This document shows positions 5,828 through 15,994 of a DNA stretch of 32,000 nt, piece by piece (the first letter of the stretch is position 1; each line of letters begins with the position of its first letter). This DNA is from Fluviibacter phosphoraccumulans (GTDB taxonomy: Bacteria; Pseudomonadota; Gammaproteobacteria; Burkholderiales; Rhodocyclaceae). The position numbers were made by a program, and so were the translations under genes. Location of the stretch: assembly GCF_016110345.1 (NCBI RefSeq), contig NZ_AP019011.1, positions 52,061 through 84,060 of the forward strand. The letters run 5' to 3'. The notes below the pieces were generated by a model, which was given only the letters and a program-made list of their open reading frames with translations, was not told where the DNA came from and did not search any database.

Positions 5828-5859
5828 CTTTTGCATGGATATTTCGGTACTTTTGCATG
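5828..5859 (+). promoter_or_regulatory. Two perfect 10-bp direct repeats (cttttgcatg) 22 bp apart, upstream of porin 1
   Basis: cttttgcatg occurs at 5828-5837 and 5850-5859, about two helical turns apart and about 110-140 bp upstream of the porin start region. This is a candidate regulator binding pair. Confidence 0.3.
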
Positions 5860-5965
5860 AGATTTACCCGCTGCGGGGTGGTCAATCCACCTCAGAGGCC
5901 CTTGAGAAGGACGAGTAGACTGATATCTAATTGATATTAAGATAATTTTTCGGCTTGGCCGAAAC

Positions 5966-7297
5966 ATGTAAAAGAAACTAATCGCTCTGGCAGTTGCTGG
6001 TCTGTCGACCGCTGCCTTCGCACAAACCAACGTCACCATCTACGGTGTTGCTGACGTTTCGGCTCAAGGCACCAACATGGGTAAGGGCTCGGCACTGGGC
6101 GCAAATCCAGCTGACGGCGGAGCTTTCAATCTGAAGTCGAACAGCTCGCTGATCGGTTTCAAGGGTACCGAAGATCTGGGCAACGGCCTCAAGGCTCTGT
6201 TCCAGATCGAAACTAACGTAAACGTAACAGGCGGCGGTACTGGCCCAGTTGCCAATACTGGTAACAGCGCTTTTGGTTCGCTGCGTGACACGTATGTTGG
6301 CGTAAGCAGCAAGTACGGTACAGCCATGGGCGGCTATCTGTCGACCCCGTTCCGATCGACGTTGACCTCGTTTGACGTGATGCCAGGTGCTACCGGTGAC
6401 GGTCGTATCGAAAACCTCATGGGCAACATGCGCATGACGGGCTCGGCTCTGGGCTACGCAGCTAACACGGGTTATCTGCAAGCATCTTCGTCGGTTCGTG
6501 CAACGGCTCTGGCCTATGCTCTGCCGACTCTGTACGGTTTCAATGGTTCGATCGCCTACACGGGCTCGAACAATAACGGTTCGACCAACCAGACTACGGT
6601 TGGTCCTGTGACCGAAAATTCTACAGGCACTTCGATCACCAGCCAAACCGTAGCTGCTCCTCAGTCGGCATTGTCGATGAATCTGGGTTGGACCGGTTAT
6701 GGTGTGAACGTTGCTGGTGCTTTCCAGCAAGCCAAGGTGAATAACTCGTTTACGTACAGCGGTCCTGTGACTGTTAGTGGCACTGATCCTGTGACTGGCG
6801 TCACTGGCAATACAAGTGTTACTGCTAATGGCTCGGGTACGCTGAATGCTCAAACTTACACCAGCTACCTGATCGGTGCTTCGTACACCGGCCTGCCAGG
6901 TCTGAAGGCTTCGGTTGTTTACAACCGTAACACCCTGAGCACCAACAACCCGAACACTAACTCGCTGCTGAACGGCGCAAGCAAGATCTCCAACAATGGT
7001 ATCTATGTTGGTGCTTCGTACCGTTTTGGCAACAACGAGCCGCGTCTGTCGTATGCAAACCTGAGCAACACCACGGGTGCTAACAGTGCATACTACGGTG
7101 GCCAGGATGGTGCTAACCAGTGGACGGCTAACTGGGGCTACTACCTGAGCAAGCGTACGCAGGTTTACGGTCTGGTTTCGTACCTGAAGAACAATGCTAA
7201 CTCGAACTACAGCATGGCGTCTGGTGGTACTTCGATTCAGCCGACTGCTGGTCAGAACCTCACCACCTACGGTGTCGGTATGCGCACCAACTTCTAA
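5966..7297 (+). CDS. General outer-membrane porin (Gram-negative porin family), copy 1; anomalous start (ATG-TAA, then signal peptide)
   Basis: The ORF track gives 6077..7297, but the frame is open back to 5972. That stretch encodes KKLIALAVAGLSTAAFA|QTNVTIYGVADVSAQG, a signal peptide plus the first beta strand. The body has alternating beta-strand patterns and the C-terminus is TYGVGMRTNF. The ATG at 5966 is followed in frame by TAA at 5969. Confidence 0.85.
5999..6079 (+). repeat. 81-bp 5' homology block shared with porin 2 (12794-12874), 1 mismatch
   Basis: Direct comparison of ggtctgtcgaccgctgc[c/t]ttcgcacaaaccaacgtcaccatctacggtgttgctgacgtttcggctcaaggcaccaacatg in both copies. Confidence 0.9.
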
Positions 7298-7360
7298 TCA
7301 GTTAGTTTCCTGATTTAGAGTGAAACGGGAGCCTTCGGGCTCCCGTTTTTATTGGTGCTT
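7281..7360 (+). repeat. Perfect 80-bp direct repeat, left copy (candidate attL): last 6 porin codons, stop and terminator
   Basis: tgcgcaccaacttctaatcagttagtttcctgatttagagtgaaacgggagccttcgggctcccgtttttattggtgctt is identical at 7281-7360 and 13941-14020. Identity stops abruptly on both sides. Confidence 0.9.
7323..7351 (+). terminator. Rho-independent terminator of porin 1
   Basis: aaacgggagcc-ttcg-ggctcccgttt forms an 11-bp GC-rich stem, followed by a T run. Confidence 0.85.
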
Positions 7361-7362
7361 TG

Positions 7363-8688
7363 TCAGCGTAATGGTTCGATCTTGAAGTAATCACCAGTGT
7401 CTCGACCCATGTGCCAGTTCGCCAACAATTCCTCACGATGTATTTCAACCCACGCATTCGCCAGCAGCTGCTTGTTGGTAGGTAGCTGCCCATAAACTGT
7501 CTCGCTGGTTTCAATATTCATCATCAGTTCGTGACCCTGGTATTGCAGCAATAACGTGGGCGTTTCAACGTGCTGCGGGATATTGGTAGAGAAAGCAGCC
7601 ACCAGCCCGTAAAACGCTGAGACAATTTGTTGATCAGTCGCTACACGTCTTTTGATAAGCGGTTTGACGAACAAATGGCTGAGATCGATACCAGCTACAT
7701 CAAAGTGCATCATTGCTTCAAACAGTGGCTGGAGCGGATACTGCTCGTTGCCATACTTTCGACCGGCTGAACTATTGGTATGACCCGTCAGCGCATCATG
7801 AACCGCTTCTTCAATCCCCATCTGCCGGCAACAGTCTTTAAACGTATGGCGGAAGCTATGAAATACTTTTCTGGGGTCAGTGATTTTCAGGGTATTGCGC
7901 AGCCAAAGCGAGAACCAAGTGCTGAAATAGCCCGCCAGCTTGCCGCGTGGATTCGGCTTGAGATGCGGAAACAACAAGCGGTCTGGCTCTCCTTTTGCCA
8001 CATAGTCGATAAAGCCACACGCCAAAAGGACTGGGTGGACAGGTATGCGACGACGCGATGATGGATTTTTCAACTTGGCATGGGCTGCTTCGTCCGTAAT
8101 GTTCAAATAGTGTCCCAGCCCATTCACAAAACGCACATCGCGCACCAACAGCTGCGCCAGCTCTTCAACACGAGCGCCAGTGTAGAGCGCCAGCAATGGC
8201 AGCCAGTATGCCGCCTCATAGCCGCCGCCACGTGGAAGTAATTTCTCGGAATAGACCGGAGAGTTGAAAATCCGATGCAAGTCTTGAGCATCAAACGCCA
8301 CTCGCTGCTTGATAGTGGGTTTGTTCAATGTCTTGATATTTTGAGCGGGATTGTCGTCCATCAACTCATAATCGATCGCCGCTTCAAACAGACGACGGAT
8401 GATGCTGACTTTGTTGATGGTAGTGGTGACGCTATAGCCCTGTTCCAGCAGCGCATCCCGATACATCACGATATCTTTGCGGGTCAATTCAAGCAGCGGT
8501 TTGTAGCGGACAAGCTGGGCAAACTGTTTAAGGTTTTTCCAGTAAGCATCAACGGTCGTCTCGCGGCGCTGCATTGATGACTTCTGCCACAGCGCAAAAA
8601 GCTCTTCGTAAGGCGTCAAACTTAAAATTTTCGTGGATACGACGGACGAAACGATCGGACGAACAGTAACATCAGTCTCACACCACAT
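7363..8688 (-). CDS. Tyrosine site-specific integrase with a C-terminal DUF4160-like extension
   Basis: 441 aa. The N-terminal part is SAM-like/core-binding (YWKNLKQFAQLV...RKDIVMYRDALL). The catalytic residues are R172 (TGARVEE), H277-x-x-R280 (HSFRH), H303 (TGH) and Y312 (RKYG). Residues ~355-441 (IVSAFYG...YQGHELMMNIETSETVYGQLP...AWVEIHREELLANW...FKIEPLR) look like a DUF4160 family protein. Confidence 0.9.
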   Translation of the reverse strand: MWCETDVTVRPIVSSVVSTKILSLTPYEELFALWQKSSMQRRETTVDAYWKNLKQFAQLVRYKPLLELTRKDIVMYRDALLEQGYSVTTTINKVSIIRRLFEAAIDYELMDDNPAQNIKTLNKPTIKQRVAFDAQDLHRIFNSPVYSEKLLPRGGGYEAAYWLPLLALYTGARVEELAQLLVRDVRFVNGLGHYLNITDEAAHAKLKNPSSRRRIPVHPVLLACGFIDYVAKGEPDRLLFPHLKPNPRGKLAGYFSTWFSLWLRNTLKITDPRKVFHSFRHTFKDCCRQMGIEEAVHDALTGHTNSSAGRKYGNEQYPLQPLFEAMMHFDVAGIDLSHLFVKPLIKRRVATDQQIVSAFYGLVAAFSTNIPQHVETPTLLLQYQGHELMMNIETSETVYGQLPTNKQLLANAWVEIHREELLANWHMGRDTGDYFKIEPLR

Positions 8689-8711
8689 CGTTACCTACTC
8701 GACTGTATGAA

Positions 8712-8903
8712 TTAGATGGATTGGGTCGGTTTTGCCAGCCGTTGTGCTTGCTGCTGGAGCTTTTGCTGAACTTTGCGTTGTCGTTCACGCTGCAGAGCCA
8801 CTTTTGCTGAATCGACTTGCTGCTTAAGTGCCCGGATACGAGCTTGGGCTGGATTAAGCGGTTTTTGAGTGGGCTGGGCTTCGATGACCTCTTTAATGTG
8901 CAT
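8712..8903 (-). CDS. Hypothetical small basic, Gln-rich coiled-coil protein (63 aa)
   Basis: The ORF is co-directional with and sits between orf146 and the integrase. Its composition is helical and charged (RIRALKQQVDSAKVALQRERQRKVQQKLQQQAQRL). The SD is weak. An excisionase/accessory role is only a positional guess. Confidence 0.35.
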   Translation of the reverse strand: MHIKEVIEAQPTQKPLNPAQARIRALKQQVDSAKVALQRERQRKVQQKLQQQAQRLAKPTQSI

Positions 8904-8945
8904 ATTGTATTTAGCGCTCGTCTGTCCATGTCTTGTAAACCACCA

Positions 8946-9386
8946 TCACTTACCAAAGCCGGATTTCAAGGTGTTCGCTGCGTTGTCGATTGCATCATCC
9001 AGTTCGCCGTTCTCCGTCGCTTGTTTCACGATTTCCAGGGTGTTCACGAGTTCCGCCGTGTTCGCCACTTCAATCGCATACTTGCCTTTCGCCAGTTCCA
9101 GCACTTTCGCGCCATAACGGACTGACAGTGCCAACTTACCGTTATCCCCTGTAAACCACCACCCCTTGACCCGTTTACTGGTTTCGACCTGTTTACGGAT
9201 ACCCGTCTCCTTGTCGGTCAATGTGCGGACTTTGGTAAACAAATGCGTGGTGCCATTTGCCTGTGCTGTCGCCAGTTCGATCTGTTCCGCGATACGACCA
9301 ATCAGTTTGTTACGACGCTGAACGACCTGCGGTAAGTTTTGGGGTTTACGAGTAGCAGTCAGCTTGAGTGCGGATAGTGCCGTCAT
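8946..9386 (-). CDS. Hypothetical protein (146 aa), island-borne
   Basis: The ORF track starts at TTG 9410. The ATG at 9386 has a good SD (caaAGGAtttgaaATG). The composition is protein-like (MTALSALKLTATRKPQNLPQVVQRRNKLIGRIAEQIELA...WWFTGDNGKLALSVRYGAKVLELAKGK). I cannot name a family with confidence. Confidence 0.7.
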   Translation of the reverse strand: MTALSALKLTATRKPQNLPQVVQRRNKLIGRIAEQIELATAQANGTTHLFTKVRTLTDKETGIRKQVETSKRVKGWWFTGDNGKLALSVRYGAKVLELAKGKYAIEVANTAELVNTLEIVKQATENGELDDAIDNAANTLKSGFGK

Positions 9387-9528
9387 TTCAAATCCTTTGT
9401 TTGGTTGCAATGACTACACATTAGTTTCGGATTTTGGATTGGACGACCGATTTCCGCTGGTTGCCTCTTCATCGATAGTTAAAGGCCAGATTTTTTCGTC
9501 TTTCTTTATCACGCCGCTAAATACTTGC

Positions 9529-9870
9529 ATGAAAAAGAATGCACTAACCCACAAACAGTTTGCCATCCAACACCAAAACAAACGTGACACAGGATTAACC
9601 GATTGGTGGCTGCGCAACAATGGCATCAAAGCTCAAATCATTTCCAACACCCATAGCAAGCTCATTCAGGCACAGCACGAGGCGCACTTACTGCTCTCAA
9701 ACCACATTGACTTACTGACCAGAGACCAAATCAAGGCACTCAAAAACTTCCAGCGCAAAATGAACACAGGCCACATTCGCAAGAAACTCAAACCCGAAGC
9801 AGCGTATCAAGTGCTGAACATCAGCACCAAAGTCGTTCGGTTGATGCACAGGCAGGCTAAGGCAAAATAA
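9529..9870 (+). CDS. Hypothetical basic protein (113 aa), divergent from orf146
   Basis: The first ATG within ORF 9364..9870 gives MKKNALTHKQFAIQHQNKRDTGL... No domain is recognisable. It is divergently arranged, 142 bp from orf146. Confidence 0.45.
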   Translation: MKKNALTHKQFAIQHQNKRDTGLTDWWLRNNGIKAQIISNTHSKLIQAQHEAHLLLSNHIDLLTRDQIKALKNFQRKMNTGHIRKKLKPEAAYQVLNISTKVVRLMHRQAKAK

Positions 9871-10099
9871 CAGGCAACATCACGGTACAACCAACCGTTC
9901 CCAACAGGTAAAAACGCGGGTTGTAATATGACGGCTAATGACCCCGCACTCGTTGCATGTTCGCTATGGAGAACAGCAACACATGAGTGGATGCCGCAAG
10001 ATTTCTGTTTTTGACAGTTGGAAGTTCTAATACGACCGTCTTCCGTCAAATCTTTCCATAGTCGTGTGCACGGGCGATGTCATACCAATGTACGCGATG

Positions 10100-10140
10100 C
10101 GACGACTATGATGCTTTGTGAGATAAGCACATAGCCGTCG
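10100..10140 (+). other. Extended imperfect hairpin inside the 680-bp non-coding region
   Basis: cgacgactatg (10100-10110) pairs with catagccgtcg (10130-10140) with one mismatch. Nested inside is tgctt/aagca (10112-10116 / 10125-10129). The left arm can alternatively pair with catagtcgt at 10057-10065. Confidence 0.45.
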
Positions 10141-10420
10141 TATGACCTCAAGCTCCATCACCCAATGCACTACAAAAACAAAAGAAGAAAAAAAATGCGA
10201 TGAGCGATAGCGACAGCGCGAGCAAACGCAGTTTGCTCTTCAACAGCTGCTCAAAAATCACCAAGACAAAAGCATAAGTACTTCATCGCTGAAAAATGCA
10301 GCCCTAATCATGCGTCAGCAACAGCCCTATTTGCTTCTACAAACAACGCAAACGTGGGCACACGCACTCTGACTGCTGGCAAACCGCTTTGCAGCGTATA
10401 CGGCGTTATACGTCATTCGC

Positions 10421-10448
10421 CGATAACAAAATACTTAAATTGTTATCG
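10421..10448 (+). promoter_or_regulatory. Palindrome cgataacaa-N10-ttgttatcg upstream of the small recombinase gene (candidate operator)
   Basis: Perfect 9-bp inverted arms at 10421-10429 and 10440-10448, about 100 bp upstream of ATG 10551. A TTGACG-N16-CATAAC promoter-like element follows, then GGAG 8 nt before the ATG. Confidence 0.4.
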
Positions 10449-10550
10449 ATTGGCTTAAGCCGCTGAAATCGAACAGGAAATATTTCGGTAGGAATTTGAC
10501 GCATAAGAAAACATACTCATAACAACAAATCATTATCTGGAGACCACAAC

Positions 10551-11120
10551 ATGGCACAAGCAAAAACACTGACGCAAGCGGAAATCGATCAAGTACTGCG
10601 CTACATTGCACAAAAGCAACGCTACAGCGCACGCAACCGAGCGATGCTGCTCATGAGCTATTACAGCGGCATGCGAGTTGGCGAGATCGCTGCTGTGCGT
10701 ATCGGTGATGTGCGCAATGAAGATGACACGATCAAACAAGAAATCCGTTTGTCCGCCGAACAAACAAAAGGCGACACGGGACGAACAGTATTTTTTAACG
10801 AGAAGCTTCGTGCTGAAATTGCCAGTTACCTCCGCACACATAAACACAGACATCCGACGGAGCCATTGTTCTTCACGGAAAAACAGATCGGCTTCAGTGC
10901 CAACTCGCTGGCACAGTGGTTTTTCTGGGTCTATAAGAAAGCGGGTGTGAGTGGTGCCAGTTCACATAGTGGCAGACGGACTTTCATCACGTCGCTGGCT
11001 AACAAAGGGATTGGCGTCCGTGTGCTGGCAAGTTTGGCCGGACACAAATCCATCCAAGTCACGCAGCACTACATTGATGTCAACGATGGGATGAAACGGG
11101 CGGCGGTTGAGCTGGTTTGA
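10551..11120 (+). CDS. Short catalytic-domain-only tyrosine recombinase (FimB/FimE-like architecture)
   Basis: 189 aa. Catalytic residues are R42 (SGMRVGE), K73, H139-x-x-R142 (SHSGRRT), H165 (AGHKS) and Y174 (QHYI). There is no N-terminal core-binding domain. The layout parallels the ~200-aa Fim-type invertases. Confidence 0.85.
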   Translation: MAQAKTLTQAEIDQVLRYIAQKQRYSARNRAMLLMSYYSGMRVGEIAAVRIGDVRNEDDTIKQEIRLSAEQTKGDTGRTVFFNEKLRAEIASYLRTHKHRHPTEPLFFTEKQIGFSANSLAQWFFWVYKKAGVSGASSHSGRRTFITSLANKGIGVRVLASLAGHKSIQVTQHYIDVNDGMKRAAVELV

Positions 11121-11131
11121 GAACGACGCGG

Positions 11132-11152
11132 TTTATTACTTAAAGTAATAAA
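11132..11152 (+). repeat. Perfect 21-bp palindrome tttattacttaaagtaataaa between the recombinase gene and orf407
   Basis: All 10 arm positions pair around centre 11142. The 9-nt core acttaaagt recurs at 12527-12535. Confidence 0.6.
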
Positions 11153-11199
11153 TTTGAGATTGGGCTAACATGGTCGGTATCCCACGAATGGAGTAACCC

Positions 11200-12423
11200 A
11201 TGTCTGCCGACATCCCCAGTGACGAGGAATTGCTCAAGGAAATCCAAGCCAAAATCATGGTGTTGTCGACGCCGCATAATGTCGCAAAGTACGGCAAGCC
11301 GGATATCCAAACGCTGATCGCCGAAAGAAGGCAATGGTATGCAGATAAGCCCAAACGTGCAGCCGCCGCTGCCAAATATGAAGCGGAACGCAAGAAAGAG
11401 GCTGAAAAGGCCGAGCGGCAGTACCGTCGAGAGCTGAAAAAACAAGGCAAGCCCATCATTAAACAAGATGAGCTGATTGTGCAGTATCCCACCGTTGCTT
11501 TTCTTAAAGAGCGCAAGTTAACCCAGCCGGAGTTGCAGCGGTATGCGGAAATGCTGTCCGCATTGGGCGCGGCAAGCGAGCTTTACAAAGAAGGCCAAGC
11601 GATTGAGCAGCAGTACCTCGTTCCAGGCCGTAAAAAAATGGCGGAGCTGGTCGCCAAAGCGTATGGCCTCTATCGCCGCGTTGAAGCCAGTACGCTCAAG
11701 GAGGAAATCTATGATGAAATGGCCAATATTCTAAAAAGTCATTTCGGTATTGGGGTGCACGTGGACACGCCAAATGCCACTTTGCTGCTCAAAATGGTTT
11801 TTCCAAGCATGAAGTCCAAGGCAGCGCATCAATATGGACGAGCATTGGACTTTGCACTGAGTTACGAAGTCACAGCCGATGATTATGTGGCATTTATCAA
11901 AGAGCATGGCGGCTATGAAAAGATTCGACGGGCCTATGCCAAGGTGCTGGCTGCTGATGCTGGCAAACTCTTGCCATTGCAAAAACAAGCGGCGGAAGTT
12001 GCGACTTTGGAATTCATGAGCGGACTCGAACCAGTCGTCAAAGTGCAGCTAACGGCGCCAGAAGGCCGTCAACTTCGAAAATACCAAAGTGCTCAAGGCT
12101 ACCACTACTTGATTGCTGACATTGACATGCACAACAACATGGAGATTTTGTGTGCAATCCCGCCGGGCAATGGCTGGGAAGACAATTTGATGAAACACAT
12201 CGAGCAAGCGGCACAATCCCATCCTGATTGGCAAGAGGCTTATGAGCGACTTTATGGCCTGTTGGTTAAACGATCCATTAGCAAGACCGTGGAAAAAGTG
12301 GCAAAAGCGGAAGAGAAAGCTAAGTACCGTGCCAAACGTGCTGAAGGTCAAAAAAAGCGGGACGCAGCTTTCAAGCGTGAGGTGGAACGGGAACGAAAGA
12401 AGGCTGGCGCCAAAAAAACGTAA
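11200..12423 (+). CDS. Hypothetical protein (407 aa) with Lys/Glu/Ala-rich N- and C-terminal tails
   Basis: Strong SD (GGAG, then 6 nt, then ATG). The ORF is long and clean. The charged low-complexity segments are KRAAAAAKYEAERKKEAEKAERQYRRELKKQGK and KVAKAEEKAKYRAKRAEGQKKRDAAFKREVERERKKAGAKKT. I cannot assign the central ~250 aa to any family. Confidence 0.75.
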   Translation: MSADIPSDEELLKEIQAKIMVLSTPHNVAKYGKPDIQTLIAERRQWYADKPKRAAAAAKYEAERKKEAEKAERQYRRELKKQGKPIIKQDELIVQYPTVAFLKERKLTQPELQRYAEMLSALGAASELYKEGQAIEQQYLVPGRKKMAELVAKAYGLYRRVEASTLKEEIYDEMANILKSHFGIGVHVDTPNATLLLKMVFPSMKSKAAHQYGRALDFALSYEVTADDYVAFIKEHGGYEKIRRAYAKVLAADAGKLLPLQKQAAEVATLEFMSGLEPVVKVQLTAPEGRQLRKYQSAQGYHYLIADIDMHNNMEILCAIPPGNGWEDNLMKHIEQAAQSHPDWQEAYERLYGLLVKRSISKTVEKVAKAEEKAKYRAKRAEGQKKRDAAFKREVERERKKAGAKKT

Positions 12424-12508
12424 AGCATTGACGTTCGAAAAGGTTTAGGTAGCTTTTGCTACGCTGGCAGTATTTAAACTATGCCTGTCATCGAATTGAT
12501 TTGTGATT

Positions 12509-12545
12509 AAAAAAGCTGCTTTTTACACTTAAAGTGTGCTTTTTT
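12509..12545 (+). terminator. Composite A/T-clamped hairpin downstream of orf407 (possible terminator / protein site)
   Basis: aaaaaagc (12509-12516) pairs with gctttttt (12538-12545). These enclose the 13-nt palindrome acacttaaagtgt (12525-12537), and a T run follows. Confidence 0.35.
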
Positions 12546-12757
12546 GGATCAAAAAATCGTGTTTTTAGCGATGGCTTTTAAAAAATTACCGTTTTTTAGC
12601 CGTCTACATGTCAATTGGCCCTCATCTACACAAAAAATGCTGCTCTTCTGTTAAAAAATACGCTGGCAACATAGAAATAGTGCTGGTAAGTGCTGCTAAA
12701 AGTTTTGCTATAAAGTTTTAACCCGTTGAAATCTAATCTAAAAAGCGGATTTTTTTA

Positions 12758-13957
12758 ATGTAAGCGACGAAACTAATCGCACTAGCAGTTGCCGGTCTGT
12801 CGACCGCTGCTTTCGCACAAACCAACGTCACCATCTACGGTGTTGCTGACGTTTCGGCTCAAGGCACCAACATGTCGAAGGGTGTTAACCCAGGCACGAC
12901 TAAGAACGAAGGCGGTTCGTTCAACATGAAGTCGAACAGCTCGCTGCTGGGCTTCAAGGGTACGGAAGATCTGGGCAACGGCCTCAAGGGTCTGTTCCAA
13001 ATCGAAACCAACGTTGGTCTAACTGGTCAATCTGCAAACCAAGGCGTTGCAGCTGGTTCGACTTCCAATGCTGGTTGGGGTCAACTGCGTGATTCGTATG
13101 TTGGTATGAACAGCAAGTACGGTACGGTTCTGGGCGGCTTCCTGTCGACTCCTTACCGTTCGGCGCTGACCTCGTTCGACGTCATGCCTGGTGCCACTGG
13201 CGATGCACGTATCGAAACCATGATGGGCACGCAGCGTGTTAGCAAGAACGGTCTGGCTTATACTGCACAAAGCTCGGTTCGTGCAACTGCACTTGCCTAC
13301 GCACTGCCAACCATGTACGGTTTCGACGGTTCGATCGCCTACACGGGCTCGAACAACAACGGCAATAATGAAAACGTTAATTCGACTGGCAACAACTTGT
13401 ACAGCGCCCTGTCGACCCAAATCGGCTGGACTGGCTACGGTGTGAATGTCAAGGGTGCTTTCCAGCAAGCTAAGATGATGGGTGCTACGACGGCTGGTGT
13501 TAGTCAAACTCCCGCCAATGCTTACACCAGCTACCTGATCGGTGCTAGCTACACGGGCCTGCCTGGCCTCAAGGCTTCGGTTGTCTACAACCGCAACACC
13601 TTAGGTGGTAACACTGCAACTCTTGCTACTGGTGCTACTTCTGATGCCAACAAGGGTTCGAACAACCAGATCTACGCTGGTGTTAGCTACCGCTTCGGTA
13701 ACAACGAACCACGCCTGACCTACCAAAACAGCAGCAACACTTCGTTCAACGGCGCTAGCGCCAATGACGGTGCAACGCTGTGGGGTGCTAACTGGGGTTA
13801 CTACCTGAGCAAGCGTACGCAAGTTTACGGTATCGTTTCGACCATCAAGAACAACCAAAACGGTACGGTTAACATGGCTTCGGGCGGCACCTCGCTGGTA
13901 CCAACTGGTGGTCAAGTTGTCACCACCTACGGTGCTGGTCTGCGCACCAACTTCTAA
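12758..13957 (+). CDS. General outer-membrane porin, copy 2 (island-proximal); same ATG-TAA anomaly
   Basis: The ORF track gives 12872..13957, but the frame is open back to 12764. That stretch encodes ATKLIALAVAGLSTAAFA|QTNVTIYGVADVSAQG. The ATG at 12758 is followed by TAA at 12761. The C-terminus is TYGAGLRTNF. Confidence 0.85.
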
Positions 13958-14020
13958 TCAGTTAGTTTCCTGATTTAGAGTGAAACGGGAGCCTTCGGGC
14001 TCCCGTTTTTATTGGTGCTT
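13941..14020 (+). repeat. Perfect 80-bp direct repeat, right copy (candidate attR)
   Basis: Identical to 7281-7360. It includes the porin 2 terminator (13983-14011). Confidence 0.9.
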
Positions 14021-14040: not shown

Positions 14041-15246
14041 TTAGTAATTGTCGGCGTAGCGCGTTAGGCTGAGTAGCCGAAACAGTACGCGTGCGCTCAT
14101 CACGCGCAGTGCGCGATGCAGGCTGGATTTTTTGCCCCAGGCTGCTGCGGTAATTTCTTGGCTGTGGGTCTCAATCTCTTGCTGTAGCTTTGCTTCCAGC
14201 TGCGCACAGAATGCGTCGTCCTCAATAACGATATTGGCTTCCTGTGCCACTAACAGAGAGAAGGGGTCCAGATTGGCCGAGCCTAAGGTTGCCCACCGGC
14301 CATCAATGACGCCTACTTTGGCATGCATGAACCCGGGTTGGTATTCATACAGCCTAATGCCCGCATTGAGCAGCGAGCGGTACAAAGACTGCGAGGCGTA
14401 GTGTTGCAGCCGGTATTCGATTTTGCCCTGAAGGAGCAGGCGTACCTTAACGCCACGTTCTGATGCACTGAGCAGCGCGTTGAGAATGTTGCGGCTGGGT
14501 ATAAAGTAGGCCATGGCCAGCGTAATATGGTCGTGGGCGGTTTGAATGGCCTGAACATAGGCGTTTTCGATGCTGCGTCGTTGGCTCAGGTTGTTACGTA
14601 GCAAGAGCCCGGCGCGAATCTGACCGGCAGGCGCTGTCTTGGTTGGGGTAGGCGCGTGCTTAATACTGCGATGAAACAAGGGGCGGCGCGACAGCGTTTG
14701 CCATTGGCGGTCCATGGCCTCTGCAATGGGCTGCACCATCGGGCCGAAGATTTGCACGGCAAAATCAAGTCGAGTGGGGGATGGGTTGTCTGTGGCGTCA
14801 TCCAGAAGGTTGATGCCGCCAATAAAGGCGGTGCCGCCATCAAACAGCGCCATTTTGCGATGCATCCGGCGCAAGCGTGAGCGTTTGCGCGATAGCAGGT
14901 GGCGCCATAGGTGGTGTTCTGGTCGGTAGATGCGTACTTGTACGCCGGACTGTAGAAGCAATGGCAGATGGTGCTGGTCAATGTTGCGGGCACCGAAGCC
15001 ATCGACCACCAGCCGAACGTCAACACCACGCGCTGCCGCAGCGCAGAGCGCCGTCGTAACGGCCTGGCCGATGGCATCATCGGCATACAGATAAGTTTCC
15101 AGGCGAACGGTGTGGGTGGCCTGGTTAATTGCTTGTAGGAGCGCCGGAAAATACGCTTCGCCGTTGCACAGCAGGCTAATGGTGTTACCCCCCAGGACCG
15201 GATGCGCCGGGTGTAGTGCCTTCAGCAATTGGCGGCGCAGGCTCAT
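14041..15246 (-). CDS. clsB: Cardiolipin synthase ClsB-type (phospholipase D family, two HKD motifs)
   Basis: HRKMALFDGGTAFIGGINL and HAKVGVIDGRWATLGSANLD are two HxK(x)4D motifs. The likely start is ATG 15246 (MSLRRQLL...), 1 nt after the upstream stop codon. The longer track ORF (to 15426) overlaps the upstream gene. Confidence 0.9.
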   Translation of the reverse strand: MSLRRQLLKALHPAHPVLGGNTISLLCNGEAYFPALLQAINQATHTVRLETYLYADDAIGQAVTTALCAAAARGVDVRLVVDGFGARNIDQHHLPLLLQSGVQVRIYRPEHHLWRHLLSRKRSRLRRMHRKMALFDGGTAFIGGINLLDDATDNPSPTRLDFAVQIFGPMVQPIAEAMDRQWQTLSRRPLFHRSIKHAPTPTKTAPAGQIRAGLLLRNNLSQRRSIENAYVQAIQTAHDHITLAMAYFIPSRNILNALLSASERGVKVRLLLQGKIEYRLQHYASQSLYRSLLNAGIRLYEYQPGFMHAKVGVIDGRWATLGSANLDPFSLLVAQEANIVIEDDAFCAQLEAKLQQEIETHSQEITAAAWGKKSSLHRALRVMSARVLFRLLSLTRYADNY

Positions 15247-15247
15247 G

Positions 15248-15994
15248 TTAACCCGTGAGTACAAGCTCGCATCGTAAAGCGGCGTGGTCGGAAATTTTTG
15301 ACCAGCCGGCACCGTAGTGCACATCAGCCCGAACTGCCTTGAGGCCCCGCACATAAATCCGGTCGAGTCGCAGCATGGGCAAGGCCACAGGGAAGCTGCG
15401 TGCCGGTCGACCAGCAAGGTGATCAAAGACTTCGGTCAGGTGTAAACGATCAGCCAGGTGTTCGCTGGCATGGTTGCGCCAGTCGTTGAAATCGCCCGCA
15501 ATGATGAGCGGCTGATCATGCGGTACCAGTCGATCAATTTCTTCAGCCAGTGCCGCCATTTGCCATTTGCGCGACCGGGCCAGCAACGAGAGGTGGGCGC
15601 AGACACAGTGCACGATTTGTCCCTGCCACTGAATCTGCGTGTGCAAGAGTCCGCGTCGCTCAAAGCTCAGGTGCGTGACATCCTGGTTGTGGCTGGTCTC
15701 AATGGGGTAGCGCGAAAGAATGGCATTGCCGTGGTGGCCGTGGTCATAGAGTACGTTTTGACCGTAGGTGGCATTCCAGACGGAGTCCGCCAGAAACTCA
15801 TGCTGTGATTGCGCGGGCCAGTTGGCATGCTTCTGCGCGTGTTGCTGGTGTAACCCTTGTACCTCTTGTAAAAAGACCAGATCCGGGTTCAGATGGCGCA
15901 GACGATCGCGCAGGTCGTGCACCGTCAGGCGGCGGTTGAACTGCGAGAAGCCTTTGTGAATATTGTAGGTGACCAGCGACAGGGTGTCGGTCAT
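15248..15994 (-). CDS. Endonuclease/exonuclease/phosphatase (EEP) family protein, YbhP-like
   Basis: MTDTLSLVTYNIHKGF...VFLQEV...GNAILSR...IIAGDFNDW...ISDHAAL are EEP catalytic motifs. The start ATG 15994 overlaps the nadA stop (ATGA). The E. coli ybhP-clsB pairing is a known precedent. Confidence 0.85.
   Translation of the reverse strand: MTDTLSLVTYNIHKGFSQFNRRLTVHDLRDRLRHLNPDLVFLQEVQGLHQQHAQKHANWPAQSQHEFLADSVWNATYGQNVLYDHGHHGNAILSRYPIETSHNQDVTHLSFERRGLLHTQIQWQGQIVHCVCAHLSLLARSRKWQMAALAEEIDRLVPHDQPLIIAGDFNDWRNHASEHLADRLHLTEVFDHLAGRPARSFPVALPMLRLDRIYVRGLKAVRADVHYGAGWSKISDHAALRCELVLTG

Follow-up and report, generated by a model that had tools for sequence, protein, structure and literature searches.

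How does a cell make a porin from a gene whose start codon is followed at once by a stop codon, and, if it makes none there, why does the rest of the gene stay intact? The question is raised by two genes of Fluviibacter phosphoraccumulans ICHIJ1 (chromosome AP022347, 2,431,578 bp), here termed porin 1 and porin 2, that lie in the 32,000-nucleotide stretch of DNA analyzed in this work (the window). Each opens with an ATG directly followed by TAA, and each continues past the TAA as an ~400-codon reading frame in frame with it. On balance, we think it likely that the two genes are start-disabled archive copies, essentially untranslated in place, that exchange sequence with an expression locus equipped with a Shine–Dalgarno (SD) sequence.

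Two porin genes headed by ATG-TAA

The head of porin 1, at the gluQ locus, occupies positions 5966..5971 of the + strand (ATG, 5966–5968; TAA, 5969–5971), with the TAA standing where canonical paralogs have CAA, the Gln2 of an MQKK N terminus. Beyond it lies an intact but start-less open reading frame (ORF; 5972..7297, + strand) that reads AAG AAA CTA ATC GCT CTG and onward and encodes the product KKLIALAVAGLSTAAFA|QTNVTIYGVADVSAQGTN, in which the signal peptide is followed by a mature part beginning |QTNVTIYG and ending ...GMRTNF, with a TAA stop codon at 7295–7297. This product is 100% identical to the F. phosphoraccumulans porin P0001, and P0001 and its relatives carry precomputed matches to Pfam Porin_4 and Porin_1 (PF13609/PF00267); together with a signal peptide that ends AAFA|Q and a C terminus of ...RTNF, these are the features of a Gram-negative general porin. 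An ORF scan finds no ATG, GTG or TTG in frame from 5972 to 6076; the first is the ATG at 6077 (ORF 6077..7297), beyond both the signal peptide and the first β-strand.

Porin 2, which is borne on an island, is built alike. Its head lies at 12758..12763 of the + strand (ATG, 12758–12760; TAA, 12761–12763) and is followed by GCG, a codon that is GTG in two relatives, and then by ACG AAA CTA ATC. The start-less intact ORF (12764..13957, + strand; record P0065) encodes ATKLIALAVAGLSTAAFA|Q ... GLRTNF, closes with a TAA at 13955–13957 at the far end of the island, and has its first canonical in-frame start at 12872. In neither porin does an ATG, GTG or TTG occur after the TAA and before the signal peptide ends. 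The TAA is an ordinary stop codon here and closes 9 of the 24 long ORFs of the window. A preliminary description of this DNA had reported the porin 1 head, the absence of a later start before 6077 and the normal use of TAA, all of which we find as described.

Signals for initiation are sparse at both genes. A 7-bp hairpin (tttcggc-ttg-gccgaaa; 5948..5964, + strand) ends 1 nt before the porin 1 ATG, as had been noted earlier; no SD lies between the hairpin and the ATG. The folding energy of the hairpin is unremarkable relative to shuffled sequences (z = 0.14), and its sequence is identical across 14 gluQ-locus copies save for one wobble-compatible A>G change (L065). A weak GGA or AGGA stands 7 to 9 nt upstream of the ATG in porin 2 and in further island copies, and many relatives have AGA only. 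The only near-cognate codon common to both genes is the ATC at 5981 and 12776, again in agreement with the earlier account. No SD-like motif is found 5 to 10 nt upstream of the porin 1 ATC at 5981 or the CTG at 5987, and the products predicted from these two codons (MALAVAGL... and MAVAGL...) would lose the basic n-region of the signal peptide. Scans of the window for Rfam families and tRNA genes gave no hits, revealing neither a known leader RNA nor a local suppressor tRNA.

Farther upstream, the porin 1 leader harbors at ~5829–5870 a tandem motif, cttttgcatgGATATTT / cttttgcatgAGATTT, with a spacing of ~22 nt, that is kept in L002 and L003. This may be a regulator-binding site, a candidate role that would imply that a start-less gene is still under regulated transcription. 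A consensus promoter scan gave no + strand match upstream of porin 1 or porin 2; a candidate picked by eye (TAGACT-N18-GATAAT, ending at ~5946) lacks tool support and is not relied on here.

Public records carry five annotated N termini for the porin 1 gene (P0001 and P0127–P0130; window 5981–6040). The product is 406 residues long where DFAST chose the internal ATG and 438, 436, 431 or 419 residues long in RefSeq, corresponding to ATC, CTG, CTG and ATC starts, respectively. The annotation is unstable because TAA stands at codon 2, and the four differing RefSeq starts are annotation choices without evidential weight.

Could the TAA be a simple sequencing or assembly error, in place of a true ATG-CAA or ATG-AAA? 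Only the general chance of one wrong base speaks for this. The ICHIJ1 assembly is a hybrid of MiSeq and PacBio data (PMC7936642), and the 406-residue internal-ATG product does not differ among the three cultured strains (BBU68540, BBU72305 and BCA64453), which are in the same state. ATG-TAA is present in 14 of 14 orthologous gluQ-adjacent loci from metagenome-assembled genomes (MAGs) and metagenomes, which supply 13 further independent contigs, and recurs in a second gene with different bases around the TAA. These gluQ loci share the neighbors Ysc84, gluQ-like synthetase, porin and integrase, and all read ...ttcggcttggccgaaacATGTAAAAGAAACTAATC, even as their porins are only 68 to 76% identical to porin 1, with central regions that diverge by as much as ~30%. 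Conservation across strains, MAGs and metagenome contigs excludes an error, the probability of which we regard as negligible.

A canonical paralog and a survey of porin 5′ ends

ICHIJ1 also harbors a porin gene with a conventional start (P0030; locus L072, ~460 kb, spanning ~462.8–464.0 kb of AP022347). It reads cttaagAGGAGttatctaATG CAA AAG AAA CTA ATC, after which it has the same signal-peptide DNA as porins 1 and 2, and its last strand, stop codon and terminator are likewise the same as theirs. The leader of P0030 has a strong SD in the arrangement AGGAG-N7-ATG CAA AAG AAA. Most homologs begin MQKK(L/I)IALAVAGL, which places the TAA of the start-less genes at the position of the CAA (Gln) codon.

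We collected 81 porin 5′ ends by scanning metagenomes with a fully degenerate AVAGLSTAA[FI]AQTNVTIYG pattern and adding loci from a protein look-up. More than half are of class A (n = 44), which have the class A leader followed by ATG CAA and an SD that can be seen in every contig extending far enough upstream. Class B, the gluQ locus of the porin 1 type (n = 14), has the hairpin, no SD, and ATG TAA AAG AAA. Class C comprises island-borne genes of the porin 2 type, in which the spacer after the ATG is either 6 nt long, giving ATG TAA (GCG/GAG/AAG) ACG AAA (n = 5), or 5 nt long, placing the ATG out of frame (n = 8). Class D/X (n = 4; L016, L018, L020 and L041) corresponds to one orthologous locus with flanks 72 to 88% identical, at which the gene opens with ATG TAA, ATG-TG-TAA or TTG-TG-TAA; the TAA is present in all four contigs, and three of the four have stacked lesions, consisting of a 2-nt TG insertion plus, in two of them, ATG>TTG. 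Class E (n = 5) lacks an SD and has ATG CAA, and the single class F gene has CTG CAA.

In total, 30 of the 81 5′ ends have no canonical in-frame start, and these are found at locus types other than class A. ATG-TAA accounts for the 14 gluQ loci, five island loci and L041, (A/T)TG-TG-TAA for three genes, an out-of-frame ATG for six and CTG-CAA for one. Whether orthologs conserve ATG-TAA, a point raised in the preliminary description, has a divided answer: they do so without exception at the gluQ locus, but other homologous loci carry different lesions. Even among island-type loci the ATG is followed by TAAGCG, TAAGAG, TAAAAG, TACAG, CACAG, CTGCG, TAGTG or TTGTG, and the start-stop as such is not conserved. 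The conserved property, as it appears from this comparison, is the absence of a productive start and not the start-stop or any one recoding signal.

The eight class C genes with a 5-nt spacer are of two kinds. In six (TACAG, CACAG or CTGCG), the out-of-frame ATG opens an ORF of 5 or 23 codons over the signal peptide, and there is no in-frame stop. The 23-codon version, found in L022, L026, L033, L035 and L059, is a conserved overlapping ORF, MLRRKSLLWQLPACRPLPSHKPT. Its TGA stop shares bases with the GTG that lies in the porin frame within ...TNVTIYG, and a ribosome reinitiating at that GTG would yield a porin without a signal peptide. In the remaining two genes (L055, TAGTG; L077, TTGTG), the stop codon of a mini-ORF overlaps an in-frame GTG: the second porin of L055 (ATGTAGTGACG) and positions 46–56 of L077 (ATGTTGTGACG) have mini-ORFs of one and two codons, respectively, with the stop lying over the GTG and ACG AAA following. 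This layout (ATG-TAG-TG and ATG-TTG-TGA) is a possible "on" configuration that would operate by translational coupling. The matching codon of porin 2 is GCG, one transition away from GTG.

Some contigs of the survey are peculiar in other respects. A number of class A contigs of ~1.3 kb (L005, L021, L034, L040, L063 and others) that hold the canonical porin and nothing else begin 52 to 60 nt before the ATG, several of them at the same base, and are in this sense transcript-like; no start-less class is found among such short contigs, and as the sample type is unverified, this is not used as evidence that transcription is limited to the canonical class. The ATG-CAA porin ORFs of L021, L034 and L050 (two of class A and one of class E) end at 228 to 272 codons in short metagenome contigs, with unrelated sequence after the shortened ORF in L034. 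These are probably assembly chimeras at porin repeats and not true truncations.

Integrity of the start-less copies and selection

Every start-less copy that is complete on its contig (26 of 26) stays open for 388 to 435 codons past the start of the search pattern and ends in an RT(N/T/S)F β-signal. All lesions are confined to the first two to three codons, and no downstream disruption is found in any of the 26. Pairwise ratios of nonsynonymous to synonymous substitution (dN/dS; Nei–Gojobori) are 0.19 for a B–B pair, 0.18 and 0.15 for C–C pairs, and 0.07 for the D–D pair L016–L018 (synonymous divergence dS, 0.75), relative to 0.10 to 0.29 for canonical pairs; these estimates are confounded by mosaicism in most pairs, and only L016–L018 shows roughly uniform divergence. 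The start-less copies have neither a dN/dS near 1 nor frameshifts or stop codons in the body of the gene, the signs of a decaying pseudogene.

The claim made earlier that the coding sequence is selectively maintained is thus borne out. The step taken from there, that what is maintained must be translated at this site, is not supported, since the 5′ segment is 95 to 100% identical at every porin locus of the genome, one with a normal start among them, and the central regions of start-less copies are often closest to those of genes with canonical starts. If the central regions of the genes are exchanged with an expression locus, maintenance of start-less copies need not mean translation in place.

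Homology arms and shared alleles

The three ICHIJ1 porin genes share a 5′ arm of ~110 nt and a 3′ arm of ~100 nt, in which they are 95 to 100% identical, and are only 8 to 90% identical between these arms. The 5′ arm of porin 1 (5974..6087, + strand; repeat family D3) spans the signal peptide and first β-strand and is 94% identical to 12769–12882 in porin 2 and ~95% identical to the canonical porin. Its 3′ arm (7260..7360, + strand; repeat family D1) includes the last β-strand, the stop codon and an intrinsic terminator hairpin (~7325–7351), and coincides with the left, attL-like junction of the island; a second 3′ arm at 13920..14020 (+ strand), with a terminator at ~13985–14011, forms the right, attR-like junction. 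Over all 81 genes, the free codon positions of the 5′ arm are 85% identical, at a median whole-gene dS of 0.90.

Between the arms, alleles are shared across locus types. For 12 of 24 complete start-less copies the nearest relative is a gene with a canonical start. The class B, ATG-TAA porin of L067 is 96% identical in amino acid sequence to a class A porin (L044), a class C porin (L013) is 92% identical to another class A porin (L005), and porin 2 of the window is 88% identical to canonical class A porins (L069/L019). Porin 1 is 87% identical to P0002, which has an MQKK start, versus only 68 to 74% to the same-locus porins P0015 and P0031. The L067–L044 pair is a mosaic, with 98 to 100% identity over ~400 nt followed by patches of 73 to 85%. 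The porin P0012 of strain SHINM1, which has a canonical start, is 95% identical to P0121, from a start-less gluQ locus (three contigs), and 93% identical to P0126, from a class A locus; the locus context of P0012 is taken from its cluster mate P0126. P0012 and the canonical P0030 of ICHIJ1 are only 70% identical. The average nucleotide identity (ANI) of the SHINM1 and ICHIJ1 strains is at least 98.68% (PMC7936642).

Features by which a silent-copy system is recognized are found together here: a single locus with full expression signals, conserved blocks flanking a variable region, and shared or mosaic alleles, the last from different samples. The anatomy of the porin loci is apparently that of a recombining family, with homology arms, a single expression locus and several putatively archived copies.

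The integrase island that carries porin 2

The two porins of the window are separated by an island of ~6.6 kb (7298–13957) that sits within porin 1's 3′ end and terminator and has a G+C content of 0.48 to 0.49, versus 0.55 to 0.59. A tyrosine integrase gene with Phage_integrase and SAM-like N-terminal domains (7363..8688, − strand) adjoins the 3′ end of porin 1, and homologs of it occupy the same post-porin position in L002, L003, L013, L019, L055 and L074. The island further contains a DUF6641 gene (8946..9410, − strand), a small tyrosine recombinase of 189 residues (10551..11120, + strand; PF00589, E = 1.4e-26) that is 64 to 68% identical to its counterparts in L013, L019, L033 and L055, and a Lys-rich ORF of 407 residues with no Pfam match (11200..12423, + strand).

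Homologous islands (50 to 68% amino acid identity) stand behind a class A or class B porin in L013, L019 and L055. These three islands and a partial one in L033 end in a class C porin, which is start-disabled in all but L055. This arrangement indicates that the island targets a resident porin gene, at its 3′ arm, for integration and carries porin 2 as its terminal cargo. Scanning viral contigs with the arm pattern gave no matches, so the island is not represented there as a virus, and a scan of genome contigs with the porin protein returned a single distant Nitrosomonadales locus and nothing else.

The genes downstream of porin loci vary. A PLD-like gene follows porin 2 here (window 14041–15426), comes after a class A porin in L073 and after int-HTH in L074, and a TPR gene follows a class A porin in L072 and a class C porin in L004. 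These differences reflect either island insertions and rearrangements at porin repeats or mis-joins in MAGs.

A model for the start-less porins and its alternatives

The model that we favor draws on the lesions and their conservation, the intact ORFs under purifying selection, the shared arms and alleles, and the architecture of the island. In it, porin 1 would be blocked by the lack of an SD, the hairpin abutting the ATG and the UAA at codon 2, and porin 2 by a weak GGA, the ATG-TAA, and a GCG at the codon that serves as a GTG start in two relatives. Any ribosome loading at the ATG would release formylmethionine at once and would meet no later canonical start ahead of the signal peptide. The ~110-nt 5′ arm, from codon 3 to the first β-strand, and the ~100-nt 3′ arm, which the loci keep near-identical, would anchor homologous recombination or gene conversion, by which the variable central region, mainly surface loops, would be swapped between loci and between genomes. 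Selection would test an allele whenever it resides at the expression locus, and the island, which inserts at a resident porin's 3′ arm, would also carry start-disabled alleles between cells. The benefit would probably be variation of a phage receptor. Of the possibilities listed in the preliminary description, translationally silent cassettes is the one that best fits the comparative data.

The alternative with the most in its favor, which we nonetheless consider rather unlikely, is that the porins are translated in place at a low or regulated level by a noncanonical route, namely initiation at an ATC or CTG within the signal peptide, reinitiation after AUG-UAA, or near-cognate reading of UAA by tRNA-Gln, with the start-stop serving as a throttle. 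Purifying selection on the start-less copies is as strong as on canonical copies, the D/X orthologous pair at dS 0.75 being the strongest point, and the TAA replaces exactly a CAA, such that readthrough by tRNA-Gln would restore the ancestral Gln. In E. coli, start-stops are sites of ribosome binding that alter expression (10.1101/520783), the mini-ORFs of L055 and L077 that stop over an in-frame GTG have a normal coupling layout, and RefSeq models use ATC or CTG starts. The lesions at homologous loci, however, range over a TAA in frame, an ATG out of frame, an insertion of 2 nt and a CTG in place of ATG, and no one mechanism fits them all. Initiation at ATC, one of the routes proposed earlier, is disfavored in that no SD is placed to serve it, porin 1 having no SD, a hairpin by the ATG and no SD-like motif for ATC or CTG, and an ATC or CTG start would drop the basic n-region of the signal peptide; the RefSeq starts, having changed four times, are annotation choices. 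Termination–reinitiation is plausible for L055 and L077 only, but is disfavored for porin 2, whose coupling codon is GCG and not GTG. Readthrough cannot account for homologs with an out-of-frame or lost ATG, UAA is a normal stop codon, and no suppressor tRNA is encoded in the window, the part of the genome that was searched. A stronger version, which treats the start-less state as a functional design for translation (reinitiation, a near-cognate start or Gln readthrough) that makes porins at a throttled or conditional level, would explain why this state persists across species-level divergence at dN/dS values of 0.07 to 0.19; we hold it to be unlikely, and somewhat more so than translation in place at large. 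We set aside bypassing, mRNA editing and, for the variants with the ATG out of frame, −1 frameshifting on A-AAA, as none covers all lesion types.

Least probable among the readings that accept the sequence as authentic is that the genes are plain pseudogenes, with null mutations fixed, for example, under phage pressure, and ORFs left intact by passive gene conversion or by recency, without an adaptive archive. A C>T transition that turns codon 2 into a nonsense codon is an uncomplicated null mutation, the near-invariant gluQ leader of 14 copies could mean a recent lesion carried along with the leader, and the stacking of a TAA, a 2-nt insertion and ATG>TTG at one locus is as expected once the start no longer matters. 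Random inactivation, however, would mostly strike the ~1200-nt remainder of the gene, where none of the 26 complete copies has a lesion, and the independent lesions all fall within the first two to three codons. The dN/dS values of 0.07 to 0.19 are not close to 1, a lesion has been kept through species-level divergence at an orthologous locus, and the copies within one genome are not homogenized, at 8 to 90% identity between the arms.

Several observations weigh against start-disabled archive copies as well. Silence in place is inferred from sequence, as are the direction and mechanism of exchange, and the model does not account for silencing that acts on the start codon instead of the promoter. 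The ATG is unchanged in 13 of 13 aligned island-type leaders while the following 5 to 6 nt vary, which could mean that it is used. In L016–L018, the TAA has been kept through species-level divergence with a dN/dS as low as in expressed genes (0.07 at dS 0.75), and this pair is easier to explain if the copies are translated themselves, unless exchange with the expression locus is frequent. Allele sharing, moreover, is deduced by comparing metagenome contigs of unrelated origin, and mis-assembly at porin repeats may affect some of these; no recombination event has been directly observed.

Significance and comparison with known systems

If porins 1 and 2 are archive copies, a free-living river bacterium stores complete, start-disabled porin alleles that are swapped with one expression locus, and part of this store is mobile, on integrase islands aimed at the 3′ end of the porin gene itself. 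The logic of silent cassettes known from pathogens would then extend to bacterioplankton, with phages that use porins as receptors as the likely pressure, and would give the extreme turnover of alleles at the main porin locus (70% identity at an ANI of at least 98.68%) a concrete mechanism. If the porins are translated in place instead, they would exemplify efficient translation of an ORF without a start codon. For annotation, pipelines force ATC, CTG or internal-ATG starts on these genes, and the resulting proteins are probably never made in that form.

Start-stop sequences as such have precedents. Start-stop sites detected in E. coli by retapamulin Ribo-seq likewise consist of a start codon with a stop codon directly after it; they are internal, out-of-frame sites in genes with starts of their own, are accompanied by SD-like sequences and alter expression by ~16% (10.1101/520783), whereas the Fluviibacter start-stops lie in frame at the head of an ORF that has no other start, without an SD in porin 1 and with other lesions at homologous loci. 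The AUGUAA minimum upstream ORF of Arabidopsis NIP5;1 places the same six nucleotides upstream of the coding sequence of a channel protein, and operates by scanning and reinitiation with boron-dependent stalling ahead of a main ORF that has its own AUG (PMC11915504). The likeness to the Fluviibacter porins is in sequence only.

Among systems with silent surface-protein genes, the closest is omp2a/omp2b of Brucella, in which silent omp2a converts the expressed omp2b and segmental conversion diversifies the porin, mainly in surface loops (PMC7050475). Both systems have at least two full-length porin genes, and in Brucella only one is reported to be expressed. The Brucella copies are adjacent and inverted, and their silence is not ascribed to a stop at codon 2, whereas Fluviibacter has at least six locus types over the genus, three of them in ICHIJ1, with the start disabled, one copy borne on an island, a free-living river host and exchange that is deduced by comparison. 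Next closest are the vlp/vsp (vmp) genes of relapsing-fever Borrelia, which share with Fluviibacter one expression site, there with a promoter and ribosome-binding site, many silent full-length surface-protein genes, and conserved 5′ and downstream recombination anchors; in Borrelia hermsii, the archived vmp genes have upstream and downstream homology sequences (PMC4534519). The Borrelia archives are promoterless, reside on linear plasmids and are selected by host immunity, whereas in Fluviibacter the ATG is kept but blocked by a TAA or a frame shift, or is lost, and the selector would likely be phages or grazers.

The remaining comparisons concern donors and porins that are silent for other reasons. 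In Neisseria (pilE/pilS), Anaplasma (msp2) and Treponema (tprK donor cassettes; PMC10063172), silent donors feed a single expression site by non-reciprocal recombination. These donors are truncated and have neither a 5′ end nor a signal peptide, whereas the Fluviibacter copies are complete genes with a signal peptide, β-signal and terminator. Quiescent porins, such as OmpS1 and OmpS2 of Salmonella and OmpN and NmpC of E. coli, are intact extra copies that are normally unexpressed, but they are silenced at the level of transcription (H-NS, with LeuO as activator) or by an insertion sequence element and have normal start codons, unlike those of Fluviibacter. Relative to the porin pair of Brucella and the archived vmp genes of Borrelia, the Fluviibacter porins differ in silencing at the start codon, in their several locus types, in having an island-borne copy and in their free-living host.

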